This document shows, piece by piece, positions 27,382-32,329 of a DNA stretch of 64,000 nucleotides. Below the pieces are notes generated by a model. The model did not search any database. It had not been told where the DNA came from and saw only the letters and a program-made list of their open reading frames with translations. Source of the DNA: a phage; sequence record PZ347775.1, one strand, 5' to 3'. The stretch's first letter is position 1. Every line of letters starts with the position of its first letter. The translations under genes and the position numbers were made by a program.

Positions 27382-28038
27382 ATGGCAGCACCTAGAATAT
27401 CATTTTCGCCCTCTGATATTCTGTTGGGTGTTCTAGATCGCTTGTTCAAAGATAACGCTACCGGGAAAGTTCTTGCTTCCCGGGTAGCTGTCGTAATTCT
27501 TTTGTTTATAATGGCGATTGTTTGGTATAGGGGAGATAGTTTCTTTGAGTACTATAAGCAATCAAAGTATGAAACATACAGTGAAATTATTGAAAAGGAA
27601 AGAAATGCACGCTTTGAATCTGTCGCCCTGGAACAACTCCAGATAGTTCATATATCATCTGAGGCAGACTTTAGTGCGGTGTATTCTTTCCGCCCTAAAA
27701 ACTTAAACTATTTTGTTGATATTATAGCATATGAAGGAAAATTACCTTCAACAATAAGTGAAAAATCACTTGGAGGATATCCTGTTGATAAAACTATGGA
27801 TGAATACACAGTTCATTTAAATGGACGTCATTATTATTCCAACTCAAAATTTGCTTTTTTACCAACTAAAAAGCCTACTCCCGAAATAAATTACATGTAC
27901 AGTTGTCCATATTTTAATTTGGATAATATCTATGCTGGAACAATAACCATGTACTGGTATAGAAATGATCATATAAGTAATGACCGCCTTGAATCAATAT
28001 GTTCTCAGGCGGCCAGAATATTAGGAAGGGCTAAATAA
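27382..28038 (+). CDS. t: holin
   Basis: 218 aa; single N-terminal TM segment (VAVVILLFIMAIVWY) plus large periplasmic domain, T4 T-holin architecture. Confidence 0.85.
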   Translation: MAAPRISFSPSDILLGVLDRLFKDNATGKVLASRVAVVILLFIMAIVWYRGDSFFEYYKQSKYETYSEIIEKERNARFESVALEQLQIVHISSEADFSAVYSFRPKNLNYFVDIIAYEGKLPSTISEKSLGGYPVDKTMDEYTVHLNGRHYYSNSKFAFLPTKKPTPEINYMYSCPYFNLDNIYAGTITMYWYRNDHISNDRLESICSQAARILGRAK

Positions 28039-28311
28039 TTATTTGTTTGTATACATCTCTAGATATCGATATACACCCTCAAAACCCTCGTTGAATTCGT
28101 CGATGAGGGTTTTCTTATCTTCTTGAGTTAATTCAGAAACAATTTTACGGAATGAATTCTGATTTAACTTTCTACCTTCATGCGTTACTCCAATCTCATT
28201 CAGAAATGCAATAAAATTAGCACGATTCTCAACAATATCTTCTCTGGAAAATTTAATCAAAATAGACGCAACAGTAATAATTTCACGAACTGTATCAATG
28301 TTTTTATTCAT
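28039..28311 (-). CDS. asiA: anti-sigma70 factor AsiA
   Basis: 90 aa; position convergent with t and upstream of motA as in T4. Confidence 0.8.
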   Translation of the reverse strand: MNKNIDTVREIITVASILIKFSREDIVENRANFIAFLNEIGVTHEGRKLNQNSFRKIVSELTQEDKKTLIDEFNEGFEGVYRYLEMYTNK

Positions 28312-28472
28312 TAACTATACCACTCAATTAGTTGACTTTATTATAATATCATCAGACACTTGATTTGTAAACTGGTCTGTGTTATTTTCTTCAAAAATTT
28401 TTTCTACGAATTCTTTGAACGACTCACGTTCCTGAGCTACATTATGCTCGATTACCTTTTCAAGATTATGAC

Positions 28473-28751
28473 TCATTCGAAATAATCTTCAATTTCGTAA
28501 TCATGGACGTAAATCATTATAGTTTTTAATACATCATCAATACTTTTTCCTGGAGCTGGAATTACGTAAAAATATCCCGCCTTTGAGTTATCTTTATAAG
28601 TTCCAACCAAGAAATCATTATTCTCAAGATGTAGTTCTTCAACTAATTCATCGACAATTGAGTGGTATAAATTTGGTAGAAACTTATATAGCTTTTCTAG
28701 AATATCAATTTTGATTGTATATTGAACCACAGATTGAGAATCAATAATCAT
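28473..28751 (-). CDS. arn: probable Arn (anti-restriction, McrBC inhibitor)
   Basis: 92 aa acidic protein next to asiA as in T4; assignment by size and synteny. Confidence 0.55.
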   Translation of the reverse strand: MIIDSQSVVQYTIKIDILEKLYKFLPNLYHSIVDELVEELHLENNDFLVGTYKDNSKAGYFYVIPAPGKSIDDVLKTIMIYVHDYEIEDYFE

Positions 28752-28834
28752 AGACCTTCCCCTTATGTTTCTGTTTGCGATTAGATTCTTTAAACGCTTT
28801 CTTCTTATCCTTATGGACAGAAGCTCTATTAAAA

Positions 28835-29053
28835 TTATGTTTTGCGACTAAATTGTTCATAATGCTGAATTACCTCTCTTAAACATTTGCATGTGAATGA
28901 AAACTTTTTAGCTACACCACATTCAAATATATGTTCTCTTAAATCACGTGTGTCAGTATATCCCATCTCAACAATAAAATGCCGTATTAGATTTTTATCT
29001 TTATCATTGAGAGAATTAAAATAATCGGATTTTGAATTAATTTCCCTGGCCAA
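28835..29053 (-). CDS. hypothetical protein (72 aa)
   Basis: ORF track; apparent non-ATG start with AAGGTGA SD; Cys motif CGVAKKFSFTCKC. Confidence 0.4.
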   Translation of the reverse strand: MAREINSKSDYFNSLNDKDKNLIRHFIVEMGYTDTRDLREHIFECGVAKKFSFTCKCLREVIQHYEQFSRKT

Positions 29054-29333
29054 ATTGAATCACCTTCAGTTGACGTTTTAGTTCTTTTATCATTTCTTCG
29101 TTCATCGCAATATAAAGATCGCGTAAAGCGGGTTTTAGCATGTCATTTATTATAGAACTAAATGGACATACATAATCTTTTCCTACAAGCTTTTTAGTGA
29201 ATTCCATATCGCAGAACTTAAATCCCGGTTCATTGGCATAAATTCCCCATTTGGTTGACATCATTTTATTGGCATATTCCAATGCCTGGATTTGATTCAT
29301 AATTCCATCAATTTGAAACTTTTTAATATTCAT
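29037..29333 (-). CDS. hypothetical protein (98 aa)
   Basis: ORF track. Confidence 0.5.
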   Translation of the reverse strand: MNIKKFQIDGIMNQIQALEYANKMMSTKWGIYANEPGFKFCDMEFTKKLVGKDYVCPFSSIINDMLKPALRDLYIAMNEEMIKELKRQLKVIQFGQGN

Positions 29334-29794
29334 TAGTAAAGGTCCTCAGAGTAAAGTTCTTTTTCACTACCACCACGTTCAATACGTACTTGTCCAGCGT
29401 AAGTTGCAATAATCATTGCTTCTTCACGTGTCCAATAATTACTATATTGGTCAATAAATCCTTGGTCATCATCACAAACTTGCTGAGTAACTAATTGAGG
29501 TTTAACTACATCTAAAACTGCTGCCATATCTTTAGAATAATGACGAGCACCTGGAATAACAAGAGTTCGTCCATCTTTTAATTTAAAACGGTTGGCTGCA
29601 CAAACAATTCGTCGTTGATACTTTTGGTTTTCATCCCAGTATGCAGACTGCCAACAGATTTCAGGAACTTCTTTTAGAATATCTTCTTCTGCGCATTTAT
29701 AACCATGCGCTTTAAATTTTTCAGCAAGACTTTCTGGAGTTTCACGAGATAAAGGAACATTTAGCATTTTTAAACGATTAATAAATGGGTTCAT
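29333..29794 (-). CDS. hypothetical protein (153 aa)
   Basis: ORF track. Confidence 0.55.
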
Positions 29795-30120
29795 TTAAAC
29801 CATCCTTTAATACGCTGCCATAAAGTTTTCTGCTGAGCTTTGTTAACACCAATTGAGCGAATAACTGGTTGAGATTCTTGGAATTCTTTATAATCAGCCA
29901 GGTAAATTTCGTAAGCTGAATCTGTGAAGGAACTTATCGCTGCCATGAAATTATTGCGAATACCTACTGGAGCATCTTTACTTTCACGAATAATCATGTA
30001 TTTGCCAGTCTTAATCTTTACGATAGTTCCAAGATAAGCCCCGTGGTACCAGATGTCCCAACCCTCTTGAGTGGGTTCTGCGCAACGACGAAGTTCATTG
30101 ATAATTTCTAACTTGTTCAT
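29791..30120 (-). CDS. hypothetical protein (109 aa)
   Basis: ORF track. Confidence 0.55.
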
Positions 30121-30130
30121 TATTTATTCC

Positions 30131-30766
30131 TCACAGTTCAGATGCCACGATGATTACAGCTTCAATGTTTTCTGCCGAGCGTTTAATGTCAAGATACACA
30201 TTACCGTTTTTAGCGATTTTACATGACATTCCAATATCAGTAAATTTCTGAATATGATGTTCCATCATTTTGTATCCAAAAATTCGCATATTTCCATTGT
30301 TGTTAATTTCAAAATTACGAATTCCGTGAGTGCGTTTTTCTAAAATAGCGAGATAGTTACTACGATAAGTTTCAACCTTTTTAAGAACAAATCCATTTTC
30401 ATCTAAAAGTTTTAACATGAAGTCTTTATCTTCTTCCATATCAGAAGTAATCTCGCGAGCTTTACGAGTTGCTCGTTTTTTCAGTAGTTCCGGAGCATTT
30501 TCCTGTGCGTATAAAGTTGCTGCATTTGAAATAATATCCTGAGCTTCACCTGTAATGATTAATCCATCACCAGATTTCTCCACCAGGCCTTTTTTAATCA
30601 ATACCCCAATATTACTATTAACTACTGCATTACCTAAATCTGTATGCACCTCACGAACTTCTGCAGCTGTAATGAAATCTTTCTTAGCAATGGTAATTAA
30701 AATCGCAGCAGTTTTTTCATTCAGAACATCGTTAGAAGCTTTGATGATGTAAGTTACTTTAGACAT
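30131..30766 (-). CDS. motA: middle-transcription activator MotA
   Basis: 211 aa as T4 MotA; between asiA block and gene 52. Confidence 0.85.
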   Translation of the reverse strand: MSKVTYIIKASNDVLNEKTAAILITIAKKDFITAAEVREVHTDLGNAVVNSNIGVLIKKGLVEKSGDGLIITGEAQDIISNAATLYAQENAPELLKKRATRKAREITSDMEEDKDFMLKLLDENGFVLKKVETYRSNYLAILEKRTHGIRNFEINNNGNMRIFGYKMMEHHIQKFTDIGMSCKIAKNGNVYLDIKRSAENIEAVIIVASEL

Positions 30767-30854
30767 TTTCTAATCTCCGTAATTCTGTATCAGTAGTTGA
30801 TAGTTGTATAATACCACAGTATGCTTTGGGGGAGAGCCTCGGCTCTCCCTAAAA

Positions 30855-31004
30855 TTACTGCATGACTGTGATAACTGTCATGATAACACGTTGAATGCCG
30901 AACGCAAGAAGACCTCCTGCTACGGCTGGAACAACACCTAAACCCGCCAGTAAAATGCTACCAGATACTAATGCCGCGCTTGTAATACCTATAAATGGAC
31001 TCAT
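30855..31004 (-). CDS. small hydrophobic protein (49 aa)
   Basis: Hand-read ORF MSPFIGITSAALVSGSILLAGLGVVPAVAGG...; start overlaps gene 52 stop; below ORF-track size cutoff. Confidence 0.4.
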   Translation of the reverse strand: MSPFIGITSAALVSGSILLAGLGVVPAVAGGLLAFGIQRVIMTVITVMQ

Positions 31005-32329
31005 TTGATTTCCTCTAAATCTTTGGTGTATTCTGTAACTACATCAGTAGTTTTCCAATATTCGTTTTCTTCTTTCTTAGCTTTAGCTTCTTCAGCAAGT
31101 TTCTTTGCTTCATCAGAAGTCATATGAAAAATATTCATTCCGACTAGTTTATCAACATAAGAAGAATACATATCAATTTTAGAAAGTTCTTCGGTCAGTT
31201 CTTTGCGAGTTTTACCTTGCACAACAATTTCACCTGAAATTACTTTCTTAATGAAATGTGCCTTGGCAAAGGCTAAACGAAATGCTGATTCAGTTTCTTT
31301 GATTTTGTTATCAATTCGCTTTTGGACATAAGTTTTACGAACTTCAACAAAGTCTTTAATTAAATCAACTACGTTATCGTAAACTTGTAGCTTTCCTTTC
31401 TCATTAATAACAGTAATATTCTGGGAACGACGCTCAATCAACCCGAAGTCTTTCATGATTTTTGCATGGCGTTCTTCTTCGTTATCGCTCAAAGAATATT
31501 CTTTACGGAATTTAACTTTAAAGCCAAAGCCATGCTCACCACAAGCATCATCCCATGTAATGAAGCCTTTATCTTCAAGCGGGTCTAAGATTTTACTCAC
31601 ATAAGTTTCACGATCATACTTATACGGAATCTCAGTGATATTCATTTGAGTTCGTGAAGTAAACTTGTACGTTCCACGAATTTCATATTGACCGTCAATT
31701 TCAACGACTTCACCACGAAATTCTGGGAATTCTACCTTCGGTTTAGTTACTTTCTTTCCTTGAAGAGCTTGTAATACAGCTTTCTTAACAGAAGAAACGC
31801 TATGAGGAAGAATGTAAGTTGCATAACCAGTTGCAATACCGGAAACACCATTAAGAAGAACAGTAGGAATAATAGGCAAATAGAAAGCAGGAGGAATGTG
31901 TTCTTTATCTTGATGTACCGGAGCATATTCAGTATCTTTATATACACTATAGAAATTTTTACTTACACGAGCAAAAATATAACGACTTGCTGCTGCTTTT
32001 TGGACAGTACGAGAACCAAAGTTTCCTTGACCATCTAACAAAGGAAAGTTATTATTCCAAGTATTAGCCATCAAAGCCCCCGCGTCTTGCGCAGAGTTTT
32101 CACCATGATGATATCCAAGGTCAGCTACACCACCTGCAATAGAAGCGAGTTTGTGAAACTTATCTTTATTTCCTCGCGCCAAATCAAGAGCTCGAGCAAT
32201 AACAAATCGTTGGACTGGCTTAAATCCATCAATCATATTTGGAATAGCACGATTTTCAACCGTGTACATAGCATAAGCCAATGCTTCATTATCAATGATA
32301 CTTTTTAAATCGCGATTATTCAGTTGCAT
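31001..32329 (-). CDS. 52: DNA topoisomerase II medium subunit gp52 (GyrA-like cleavage domain)
   Basis: 442 aa; GyrA/ParC-like N-terminal cleavage core. Confidence 0.95.
   Translation of the reverse strand: MQLNNRDLKSIIDNEALAYAMYTVENRAIPNMIDGFKPVQRFVIARALDLARGNKDKFHKLASIAGGVADLGYHHGENSAQDAGALMANTWNNNFPLLDGQGNFGSRTVQKAAASRYIFARVSKNFYSVYKDTEYAPVHQDKEHIPPAFYLPIIPTVLLNGVSGIATGYATYILPHSVSSVKKAVLQALQGKKVTKPKVEFPEFRGEVVEIDGQYEIRGTYKFTSRTQMNITEIPYKYDRETYVSKILDPLEDKGFITWDDACGEHGFGFKVKFRKEYSLSDNEEERHAKIMKDFGLIERRSQNITVINEKGKLQVYDNVVDLIKDFVEVRKTYVQKRIDNKIKETESAFRLAFAKAHFIKKVISGEIVVQGKTRKELTEELSKIDMYSSYVDKLVGMNIFHMTSDEAKKLAEEAKAKKEENEYWKTTDVVTEYTKDLEEIK

Follow-up and report, generated by a model that had tools for sequence, protein, structure and literature searches.

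What do the four small genes between the anti-restriction gene arn and the transcription activator gene motA do for T4-like phages, and are they tied to anti-restriction at all? The interval was analysed here in a 64,000-nt stretch of phage DNA (PZ347775.1; the window), which comes from a Tequatrovirus and shares 99.1% identity with vB_EcoM_G50; this phage and RB27-type phages are nearer to the window than T4 itself. An initial annotation had placed ORFs of 72, 98, 153 and 109 aa between arn and motA, and their coordinates, on the minus strand throughout, proved exact. These four genes are real, but they do not account for the whole gap, as a conserved 39-aa ORF of the DUF7230 type (28741-28860) had been missed. 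The genes of the locus are as follows.

28473-28751, minus strand: arn (context), Pfam DM_Arn (E = 6e-52), placed last in the "arn operon" and encoding a DNA mimic that inhibits McrBC
28741-28860, minus strand: 39-aa ORF, DUF7230 (E = 1.6e-11; score 44.6 bits, cut-off 27), PHROG 1359
28835-29053, minus strand: arn.1 in its long form, 72 aa, TTG start, PHROG 4452
29037-29333, minus strand: arn.2, 98 aa, Pfam PF26819, PHROG 1844
29333-29794, minus strand: arn.3, 153 aa, Pfam PF26092 "T4_Y16D", PHROG 839
29791-30120, minus strand: arn.4, 109 aa, Pfam PF26821, PHROG 1594
30131-30766, minus strand: motA (context), activator of middle transcription; 10 nt separate its stop codon from the arn.4 start downstream

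Each of the four ORFs at 28835-30120 has its orthologue in T4 (arn.1, arn.2, arn.3 and arn.4, respectively), so that they are already known, conserved genes. Protein identity with T4T is 94-98%, and order and orientation between motA and arn are the same. The PHROG families are identical to those of T4, and near-identical homologues of Arn.2, Arn.3 and Arn.4 carry the same Pfam families. Stop-free stretches of at least 72 codons on the minus strand cover 99.8% of the interval, while the mean coverage is 4.6% in shuffled versions (n = 1000), none of which reached 95% (0 of 1000), so that the tiling of ORFs is far beyond chance. Moreover, protein-level homologues of all four exist in other Tevenvirinae genera at 32-82% identity. 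The genes are translationally coupled: arn.4 and arn.3 share ATGA at their junction, arn.3 and arn.2 share TAATG, and the last 17 nt of arn.2 overlap the arn.1 start. A Shine-Dalgarno sequence (GAGGA, AGGA, GAGGA and AAGGTG) is found upstream of each of the four starts. The products are mutually unrelated, small and predicted to be soluble, with one family of its own for each.

Two of the gene models differ from the reference annotation. In T4 and T2, only the last 43 codons are annotated as arn.1, while the form in the window is 72 aa long. This long form matches PHROG 4452 over residues 1-72 of 72 (the 43-aa form is PHROG 6212), and residues 1-72 are covered by tblastn in 803 of 808 phage records. 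The N-terminal 29 residues are kept at protein level across six genera, the long-form start position is ATG in homologues of four other genera and GTG in Jiaodavirus, and Met30, the start of the short form, is Leu in most homologues of other genera. Because of these conserved residues, the ATG/GTG starts elsewhere and the variable Met30, the TTG-started 72-aa arn.1 is the correct gene, and the T4 43-aa form is a truncation. Similarly, the T4 reference gives arn.4 only 68 aa compared with 109 aa in the window, although the Arn.4 N-terminus is the best-conserved stretch of its family. Conserved reading frames thus support the longer form of both genes.

The fifth small gene is conserved between arn.1 and arn, overlapping the 3' end of arn.1 by 26 nt and the 5' end of arn by 11 nt. 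Its 39-aa product is strongly basic (net charge +9), and the ORF stays intact in some 18 sequence variants, which come from several genera and share the consensus MNNxVAKxDFNKxxxHKDKK…RKQKHKGK. It is omitted from the T4T and T2 annotations.

As the initial annotation had proposed, the setting is one of host takeover: arn.1-4 lie on the motA-to-arn transcription unit, with takeover genes on both flanks. No MotA-box middle promoter was found in 28,000-32,300 (the nearest ones lie upstream of gene 52), and sigma70-like matches in the region are no more frequent than expected by chance. A dedicated promoter upstream of arn.4 was rejected on these two grounds. In T2, ArcZ and RNase E control the arn transcript post-transcriptionally, and the arn.2 mRNA is the main phage partner of this host sRNA (bioRxiv 10.64898/2026.06.19.733364). 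The corresponding short signals in the window are listed below.

28978-28982, minus strand: GCATT, described as a putative RNase E motif in the T2 preprint; the annotated arn.1 ATG follows 11 nt downstream
29040-29049, minus strand: CCAGGGAAAT, complementary over all 10 nt to the ArcZ seed AUUUCCCUGG
29061-29066, minus strand: AAGGTG, Shine-Dalgarno sequence of arn.1, 7 nt upstream of the TTG start, read from the sequence

Both features by which the T2 preprint recognises the ArcZ-regulated "arn operon", the stretch complementary to the seed, located where arn.2 ends, and GCATT, are thus present in the window. The complement occupies arn.2 positions +285 to +294, which in the long arn.1 ORF fall on codons 2-5; GCATT lies inside the same ORF, overlapping codons R24, H25 and F26. 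The ArcZ sequence was confirmed with Rfam RF00081 on an E. coli locus. Long-range RNAduplex predictions of ArcZ against the operon were uninformative, and the 10-nt complement was taken from the sequence itself. For T2, the pairing site and what it does have been reported, with the 70 nt upstream of the short arn.1, annotated as intergenic in T4 and T2, used as such (bioRxiv 10.64898/2026.06.19.733364). Since arn.1 has 72 codons, this "70-nt intergenic region" is coding sequence, and ArcZ pairs with arn.1 codons 2-5.

Neither profile searches nor structure prediction (Arn.3 and Arn.4), both proposed at the outset as checks, yielded an assignable function. Scans of all four proteins against Pfam-A, NCBIfam and PADLOC returned nothing significant, the best being sub-threshold chance matches, and PDB sequence searches with single sequences and profiles gave no match. 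Fold searches with the confident models of Arn.3 and Arn.4 retrieved no solved anti-defence protein, nucleotide sponge or enzyme. Marginal scores (3-12% sequence identity) were obtained with the structural-genomics proteins YkuJ and 1ylx and with RWD/UBC-like alpha+beta sandwiches; the best of these matches have no known function of their own, so none can be transferred. The view that the products have no recognisable motifs holds for functional motifs, but not for families: PF26092, PF26819 and PF26821 exist, as does a sharp signature in Arn.3.

No functional study of arn.1-4 was found in the literature, T4 toxicity screens included, and a June 2026 preprint states that their functions are unknown (bioRxiv 10.64898/2026.06.19.733364). 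They are therefore conserved T4 genes without a documented function, unrelated to takeover or otherwise. In the HIDEN-SEQ data (T4 on E. coli K-12), arn.1-4 are non-essential, with 95-100% of TA sites hit, and Arn is dispensable in the laboratory too, whereas the flanking motA and asiA are essential (2 of 53 TA sites hit in motA). This is the pattern expected of accessory genes. All four were scored "Not Fit" by CRISPRi-ART. In the published transposon data, mutants of arn.1-4 were not depleted in the presence of RexAB, RnlAB or DarTG1 (log2FC 0.00 to 0.20; adjusted p = 1). The genes had initially been put forward as candidates for anti-defence or host shutoff; they are genuine and dispensable, but neither these mutant data (RexAB, RnlAB and DarTG1) nor the profile, PDB and fold searches, which matched no defence profile and no solved anti-defence protein, link them to either role.

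The distribution of the genes also bears on the assumed link with arn. In the Tevenvirinae loci sampled that bear motA and asiA, arn.4, arn.3 and the 39-aa ORF are found in every one, arn.1 in most and arn.2 in some, while arn itself occurs only in T4/T2/T6-type loci. The motA-asiA interval varies by genus (two lack arn.2, most have something else in place of arn, and additional ORFs occur as insertions), and arn.4 adjoins motA or lies one small ORF away. Generally, arn.1-4 travel with motA and asiA and not with arn. Most loci with arn.4 and arn.3 have no arn, so that the case for a connection with the anti-restriction gene is one of weak guilt by association. The ubiquity of arn.4, arn.3 and the 39-aa ORF, set against an arms-race role, fits a housekeeping-like auxiliary role at least equally well. 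Net charges are +2 for Arn.1, +3 for Arn.2, -3 for Arn.3, +4 for Arn.4 and -10 for Arn. DNA mimicry of the Arn, Ocr or ArdA type was considered for Arn.1-4 and rejected, given charges of -3 to +4 and no match to DM_Arn or another mimic family.

Arn.3 is the most widespread of the four. It consists of a three-helix N-terminal extension followed by the family core at about residues 58-153 (window 29336-29623), with the signature RH…QGFxD…R…Q…LxSExLY reaching to the C-terminus; all signature residues are present in the window protein. PF26092 was not returned by the Pfam-A profile scan, and membership comes from annotated homologues: the family is assigned to a cluster 97% identical to the window Arn.3 and to each of the 120 homologues listed. 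When a profile was made from the window Arn.3 and its homologues, it found 3414 cluster representatives, nearly all viral, and the family is present in 1585 phage records across Straboviridae, Ackermannviridae, Stephanstirmvirinae and jumbo phages. Outside Tevenvirinae, the other arn genes do not accompany it. One match, in a MAG, was obtained in a search of representatives of 185,579 cellular species, with stringent T4-like patterns that distant homologues may escape. The family is almost only found in virulent phages.

In the confident model of Arn.3, the core folds into a compact domain of beta-beta-alpha-beta-beta-alpha topology. Its two predicted helices are each immediately preceded by an invariant arginine (one of them in the R-H pair), the Q-G-F-x-D and Q residues are invariant, and an invariant S-E-x-L-Y tail ends the chain. 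Based on where these polar and charged residues fall on the predicted monomer, we tentatively propose that Arn.3 binds or processes a phosphate-bearing ligand, which may be a nucleotide-type small molecule or an RNA or DNA end. As a guess, the protein would probably be oligomeric, with the tail closing the site.

The genomic surroundings of Arn.3 are rows of small uncharacterised ORFs (92 loci, 65 independent groups), among which no recurrent neighbour was seen at BLAST level. Ten longer members (244-434 aa) were inspected for domain fusions, and their extra regions gave no Pfam match. Several structural ideas for this family were tried and discarded. For example, a SpoVT/AbrB-MazE swapped hairpin for the "GRxLVIP" motif received hhalign probabilities of 0.4% and 0.1% against AbrB and MazE sequences, and no Pfam SpoVT_AbrB match was found. 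No signal was obtained for an internal duplication of the core into two hairpin-helix halves. Apparent tandem paralogues were mostly single-linkage artefacts, with true second copies in two loci only.

In the 72-aa product, Arn.1, the initial annotation had noted a C..C..C cluster. The three cysteines are there (C45, C55 and C57), but C55 is variable, and only C45 and C57 are invariant. H41 is invariant as well, and H64 is near-invariant, with Tyr in one natural variant, across two phage families; a T5-like Serratia phage has a 94-aa homologue, with the other arn genes absent nearby. Because of this conservation, H41-x3-C45…C57-x6-H64 is a possible zinc site. Arn.1 might be a helical, mildly basic mini-protein held together by this His2Cys2 site, and it might bind nucleic acid or a protein partner; both suggestions are of low confidence.

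Arn.2 is the narrowest family, with only 23 homologous clusters, all from T4-like phages. It is absent from Kanagawavirus and Marfavirus loci. Its nearest cluster (96% identity) carries PF26819, and PHROG 1844 matches it end to end (E = 1e-49). It may be a lineage-restricted add-on, a tentative suggestion. Arn.4 is found in 56 clusters, from T4-like phages only, with PF26821 in the nearest one (96% identity) and an end-to-end match to PHROG 1594 (E = 2e-54). In the predicted structure, residues 1-83 form a helix, a five-stranded sheet and two more helices, and a flexible linker then leads to a C-terminal helix, which is conserved, basic and amphipathic (…W-x-x-I-K-x-W-F-K). An alpha/beta sandwich that ends in such a tail could serve as a protein-binding adaptor or inhibitor, a low-confidence proposal.

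From the above, we regard arn.1-4 as encoding independent accessory proteins, each probably acting on a host component and bringing a gain only in particular hosts or conditions, a reading to which we give about an even chance. The payoff would be counter-defence or fine-tuning of takeover, bound to host or condition. Each protein is a family of its own with a different phyletic range, so the families are separate, and it is unlikely that the four are parts of one machine or helpers of Arn. An anti-defence role is plausible, though unsupported. A more ambitious reading, which we consider unlikely, would have Arn.3 found a new-fold class of counter-defence proteins, nearly confined to virulent phages and present in thousands of their lineages, that sequester or chemically alter a phosphate-bearing host molecule (e.g. 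an immune signal of nucleotide type, or an RNA end that is damaged or tagged), and would make Arn.1 a new zinc-stabilised mini-protein whose start is overlapped by ArcZ. Also rather improbable is a role outside defence, in which arn.1-4 are auxiliaries of sigma appropriation by MotA/AsiA or of early-to-middle expression (RNA polymerase, transcripts or ribosome). This would fit the presence of arn.4, arn.3 and the 39-aa ORF in every sampled locus with motA and asiA, arn-less genera included, the position of arn.4 at or near motA, the basic character of Arn.1, Arn.2, Arn.4 and the 39-aa protein, and the post-transcriptional control of the transcript by ArcZ and RNase E (bioRxiv 10.64898/2026.06.19.733364). 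However, profile and PDB searches detected no domain that binds DNA, RNA or RNAP; Arn.3 is also common where MotA is absent, as in Ackermannviridae, jumbo phages and an Alteromonas phage; and all four are fully dispensable while motA and asiA are essential in the HIDEN-SEQ data.

Lower in our ranking, with little probability, is the idea that Arn.3 takes part in RNA or nucleotide end-processing, e.g. with a phage phosphoesterase, kinase and ligase in the repair of tRNAs that host anticodon nucleases have cleaved. In Phapecoctavirus ESCO5, the genes right after the homologue encode a phosphoesterase, RNA ligase and ATPase; a Metallophos phosphoesterase comes directly after it in two unrelated metagenomic phage contexts, with PNKP on one contig; one GenBank homologue is labelled "putative tRNA processing enzyme"; and the invariant Arg/His/Arg set would suit phosphate binding. 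Against this, in an iterated HMM search the phosphoesterase is adjacent in only 3 of 65 independent groups and 3-4 kb away in two more, the T4-like gene does not lie beside pseT, rnlA or rnlB, and no similarity to Tpt1, 2H, HD or other RNA-end enzymes emerged from the fold search. It is quite implausible that arn.1-4 help Arn against McrBC or other modification-dependent (Type IV) restriction, as the name "arn operon" implies. They do share a transcript with arn (bioRxiv 10.64898/2026.06.19.733364), and many GenBank and UniRef homologue records are labelled "anti-restriction nuclease", but these labels have spread from gene names and not from tests. Furthermore, arn is confined to T4/T2/T6-type loci while arn.4, arn.3 and mostly arn.1 occur in all the other sampled Tevenvirinae loci, none of Arn.1-4 is acidic like the DNA mimic Arn, and the T2 ArcZ phenotype, which is suppressed by mcrC deletion, was ascribed to Arn alone (bioRxiv 10.64898/2026.06.19.733364). 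That some ORFs, above all the TTG-started one, are chance frames or annotation artefacts is hardly credible. The T4/T2 annotation, with 43 arn.1 codons behind an intergenic 70 nt and a 68-aa arn.4 in the T4 reference, would agree with it, but the Arn.1 N-terminus conserved in six genera, its ATG/GTG starts elsewhere and variable internal Met, the well-conserved Arn.4 N-terminus and an open-frame coverage unmatched in 1000 shuffles all argue against it.

Independent accessory proteins remain our preferred reading. Among virulent phages none is better studied than T4, and still about half of its genes lack a known role; the arn block is typical of them. The corrected gene models (arn.1 with 72 and not 43 aa, arn.4 with 109 and not 68 aa, and the extra 39-aa gene) matter for current functional work. 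Since the genes, except the patchy arn.2, are present in arn-less loci with motA and asiA, the "anti-restriction nuclease" labels are unfounded, and the assumed tie to anti-restriction is weakened by the distribution. Arn.3 is the best target, with its 3414 representatives, sharp signature, confident model, lack of a structural relative and near-absence from cells. Its function, once found, would annotate thousands of phage genes.

Compared with known systems, Arn.1-4 share with Arn the operon, the small size and the dispensability in the laboratory. They are not related to it in sequence, and they differ from it in charge (Arn has a pI of 4.5 and a net charge of -10) and in phyletic range. 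His2Cys2 zinc sites can bridge two helices, e.g. in the HCCH motif of HIV-1 Vif. Arn.1 has four conserved potential ligands in the same order, H…C…C…H, and the i/i+4 and i/i+7 spacings would place each ligand pair on one helix face; however, spacing and context are unlike those of such sites, and Arn.1 is not homologous to them. Small phage anti-defence proteins with solved structures comprise nucleotide-signal sponges, signal-degrading enzymes and DNA mimics. In a comparison from general knowledge and not from a computed match, Arn.3 resembles this class in size, restriction to phages, dispensability and a dense set of conserved, pocket-like polar residues.

By the gene names used in ime09 and T4T, the four open reading frames (ORFs) at 28835-30120 are arn.1 to arn.4. 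They are T4 genes already known. The region shares 99.1% identity over 1.5 kb with Escherichia phage vB_EcoM_G50; RB27, ime09 and many further Tequatrovirus genomes show 96-97% identity, and 683 phage records match the region.

Genes from gene 52 to asiA, named after ime09 and T4T except for the 39-aa ORF
31001-32329, minus strand: gene 52
30855-31004, minus strand: motA.1
30131-30766, minus strand: motA
29791-30120, minus strand: arn.4
29333-29794, minus strand: arn.3
29037-29333, minus strand: arn.2
28835-29053, minus strand: arn.1
28741-28860, minus strand: 39-aa ORF without a name, Pfam DUF7230
28473-28751, minus strand: arn
28324-28476, minus strand: asiA.1
28039-28311, minus strand: asiA

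The next gene after asiA is the holin gene t, on the plus strand. Between motA.1 and motA, directly 3' of the motA.1 stop, lies an inverted repeat rich in G and C (GGGAGAGCC-GA-GGCTCTCCC, about 30830-30849, minus strand) with no T-run after it; it may serve as an element of RNA processing or stability, or as a pause site before motA.

On the minus strand, 99.8% of 28835-30120 lies within stop-free stretches of 72 codons or more. When these bases were shuffled 1000 times, the mean coverage was 4.6%, and no shuffle reached 95%. The four genes lie head to tail with stop/start overlaps (ATGA, TAATG and 17 nt), a Shine-Dalgarno sequence precedes every start, and every product has protein-level homologues with 32% to 82% identity in other Tevenvirinae genera (Jiaodavirus, Kanagawavirus, Winklervirus, Marfavirus, Karamvirus and one divergent Tequatrovirus). 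These are real, conserved and translationally coupled genes, and their conservation excludes the explanation that the ORFs are not genes at all. The four ORFs of the initial annotation are present as described, but the count between arn and motA is five.

The fifth ORF, of 39 aa (MNNLVAKHNFNRASVHKDKKKAFKESNRKQKHKGKVYDY), overlaps both the 3' end of arn.1 and the 5' end of arn, and carries no annotation in the T4T and T2 records. It matches Pfam DUF7230 with E = 1.6e-11, exceeding the curated cut-off, belongs to PHROG 1359, and is uninterrupted in about 18 sequence variants across genera (consensus MNNxVAKxDFNKxxxHKDKK…RKQKHKGK). The product is very basic, with a net charge of +9. Several longer PHROG families resemble it within its first 25-29 residues only.

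For arn.1, the TTG-started 72-aa form is the right gene model and the 43-aa annotation of T4 is a truncation. Homologues start at the long-form position with ATG (JK45, Kanagawavirus, Winklervirus, Marfavirus) or GTG (Jiaodavirus), and the internal Met30, the annotated start in T4, is replaced by Leu in most of these homologues. Moreover, conservation in Arn.1 is among its strongest at the N-terminal motif DYFNSLN…K…I…FI-x-E-x-GY, and a good Shine-Dalgarno sequence (AAGGTG) precedes the TTG by 7 nt, so the 72-aa length first proposed is borne out. The cysteine cluster noticed in this product holds for C45 and C57, which are invariant, but not for C55, found in T4-type phages alone. H41 is also invariant and H64 has one exception, giving H-x3-C…C-x6-H; the i/i+4 and i/i+7 spacings would put each pair on one helix face, an arrangement which would suit a candidate His2Cys2 zinc site bridging two helices.

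The window retains the exact target of the host small RNA ArcZ, CCAGGGAAAT, at 29040-29049 (minus strand), complementary at every position to the ArcZ seed AUUUCCCUGG; the seed was checked on an E. coli locus with Rfam. In the corrected model this site corresponds to codons 2-5 of arn.1, just past the TTG start and its Shine-Dalgarno sequence. sRNAs usually influence translation initiation from such a position, and ArcZ may act in this way on arn.1. A putative RNase E motif, GCATT (28978-28982, minus strand), lies inside the codons for R24-H25-F26. A full-text literature search found one study only on arn.1-arn.4, a T2 phage preprint of June 2026, in which arn.4-arn.3-arn.2-arn.1-arn form a single transcript and ArcZ base-pairs at the arn.2 3' end (+285 to +294), shielding the transcript from RNase E (bioRxiv 10.64898/2026.06.19.733364). 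The reporter constructs of that study contain a "70-nt intergenic region" upstream of the annotated arn.1, which is coding sequence in the corrected frame. Ribosome traffic on arn.1 may also be part of the RNase E effect.

The conserved form of arn.4 is 109 aa long and intact in T4T and the window, and the T4 reference genome entry is 207 nt (68 aa); in screens designed on that entry, the shorter form was the target. The N-terminal 40 residues of Arn.4 are its best-conserved part, with most of the invariant positions of the family. Arn.2 has the narrowest range of the four (23 clusters), and its gene is missing from the Kanagawavirus and Marfavirus loci examined. No family match for Arn.1-Arn.4 was found in the copies of Pfam-A, NCBIfam and PADLOC searched, and no sequence relative in PDB. 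A newer Pfam release, seen via a large protein collection, has families for Arn.3 (PF26092), Arn.4 (PF26821) and Arn.2 (PF26819); the name of the first, T4_Y16D, comes from an uncharacterised T4 protein.

Arn.3 is the stand-out of the four. Searched with a profile, 1.84 billion representatives yielded 3414 members at E <= 1e-3 (1355 at E <= 1e-10), and the domain was found by tblastn in 1585 phage genomes, covering Straboviridae, Ackermannviridae, Stephanstirmvirinae, jumbo phages of Erwinia, Serratia and Pseudomonas, and one Alteromonas phage. Among 185,579 bacterial and archaeal species (one genome each), there was a single match, in a MAG, to stringent patterns that distant relatives may escape. 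The family core has 83-95 residues, preceded in T4-type proteins by about 45 further residues of helical extension; the N-terminal regions of longer members have no recognisable match. Diverse minimal members share an invariant R-H pair, Q-G-F, one Arg, one Gln and the L, E and Y of L-x-S-E-x-L-Y, which is the chain end in every minimal member compared; the Ser and second Leu of this motif are nearly invariant, as is the Asp that follows Q-G-F. In the AlphaFold model, which is confident (pLDDT 88 overall, 92-98 in the core), the core runs beta-beta-alpha-beta-beta-alpha and then into a C-terminal tail, and R84-H85 and R123 each stand immediately ahead of a predicted helix. On this predicted monomer, these residues and the other invariant polar ones together suggest a candidate site where a ligand carrying phosphate could bind.

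No recurrent neighbour of Arn.3 was found in 65 independent locus groups. The single suggestive context is a phosphoesterase directly beside the gene in 3 of the 65; it follows the Arn.3 homologue in the arrangements of L019 (Escherichia phage ESCO5, 3426-5672), L013 (2950-4008) and L014 (8001-9051). Genes for an RNA ligase and a small ATPase continue the row in ESCO5, which looks like an RNA-repair cassette. In two Ackermannviridae loci (L018, Salmonella phage Se-G, and L020, Shigella phage ChubbyThor; 1-3773), the homologue is just downstream of two topoisomerase II subunit genes, echoing the T4-like order gene 52 … arn.3, though these phages lack motA. Two phage contigs, L032 (IMG/VR UViG 2974741249) and L084, each hold a pair of paralogues close together: in one the copies, of 162 and 165 aa, are adjacent, and in the other they have 96 and 93 aa and stand three genes apart. 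In L092, L095 and L098 (IMG/VR), MORN-like ORFs of repeated GxxxWYxNGKRHREDGPA units lie beside a minimal 88-aa homologue, and a 56-aa chimeric ORF, which combines an N-terminus of this repeat type with the final 30 residues of the homologue, suggests local recombination.

Over all loci compared, arn is confined to T4/T2/T6-type phages; comparison of L004, L006-L009 and L032-L120 with window 28473-28751 detected it nowhere outside such loci. Other Tevenvirinae genera sampled have different small ORFs in its place, from the 39-aa ORF to asiA; one of them, in Kanagawavirus, is labelled "inhibitor of MrcBC restriction" but has no tblastn similarity to Arn. Every sampled Tevenvirinae locus with motA and asiA has arn.4, arn.3 and the 39-aa ORF, most have arn.1 and some arn.2. 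Outside Tevenvirinae, Arn.3 occurs without the other arn genes, and a T5-like Serratia phage carries a 94-aa Arn.1 homologue with none of the others nearby. This co-occurrence pattern indicates that the four genes are separate modules on a common transcription unit and that McrBC does not account for their conservation. The "anti-restriction nuclease" labels on homologues in many records come from gene names only.

In the laboratory, T4 can do without its orthologues of the four genes, as two genome-wide T4 screens show in their supplements. All four are "Not Fit" in CRISPRi-ART (PMC11879866). In HIDEN-SEQ transposon sequencing (bioRxiv 10.1101/2025.11.20.689424), they are non-essential, with insertions at 13/13 (arn.1), 21/22 (arn.2), 33/34 (arn.3) and 16/16 (arn.4) TA sites, and motA (2/53) and asiA (7/23) are in the essential class. 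In the same data set, insertions in the four genes are not depleted on any of three defence hosts, with log2FC of 0.00 to 0.06 on RexAB, 0.15 to 0.20 on RnlAB (positive control dmd, -4.06) and 0.04 to 0.18 on DarTG1 (positive control 30.3, -7.25). The initial annotation saw candidates for anti-defence or host shutoff: uncharacterised accessory genes they are, but an anti-defence role is unsupported, and none of the four is needed against these three systems. The T2 preprint states twice that their functions are unknown and only "conceivably" counter-defence (bioRxiv 10.64898/2026.06.19.733364).

The most likely reading, about as probable as not, is that these are independent accessory proteins, each acting on a host component and useful only in some hosts or conditions. 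Arn.3 might then bind or process a phosphorylated ligand, Arn.1 might be a helical binder, possibly zinc-stabilised, Arn.4 could be a protein-binding adaptor and Arn.2 a lineage-specific add-on; each specific mechanism is tentative and much less probable than the general picture. Besides the non-gene explanation excluded above, there are three main rivals. Co-distribution with motA and asiA would fit genes auxiliary to the MotA/AsiA expression programme, but the genes are dispensable and Arn.3 is present in phages without MotA. Arn.3 may alternatively take part in RNA or nucleotide end-processing, to which a few neighbourhoods only point. The main interest lies in the large, structurally orphan, virus-restricted Arn.3/T4_Y16D family and in the gene-model corrections. 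The third rival, that the four products are helpers of Arn, is disfavoured by both distribution and charge: Arn, a DNA mimic, is acidic, whereas Arn.1-Arn.4 are mildly basic or near neutral.
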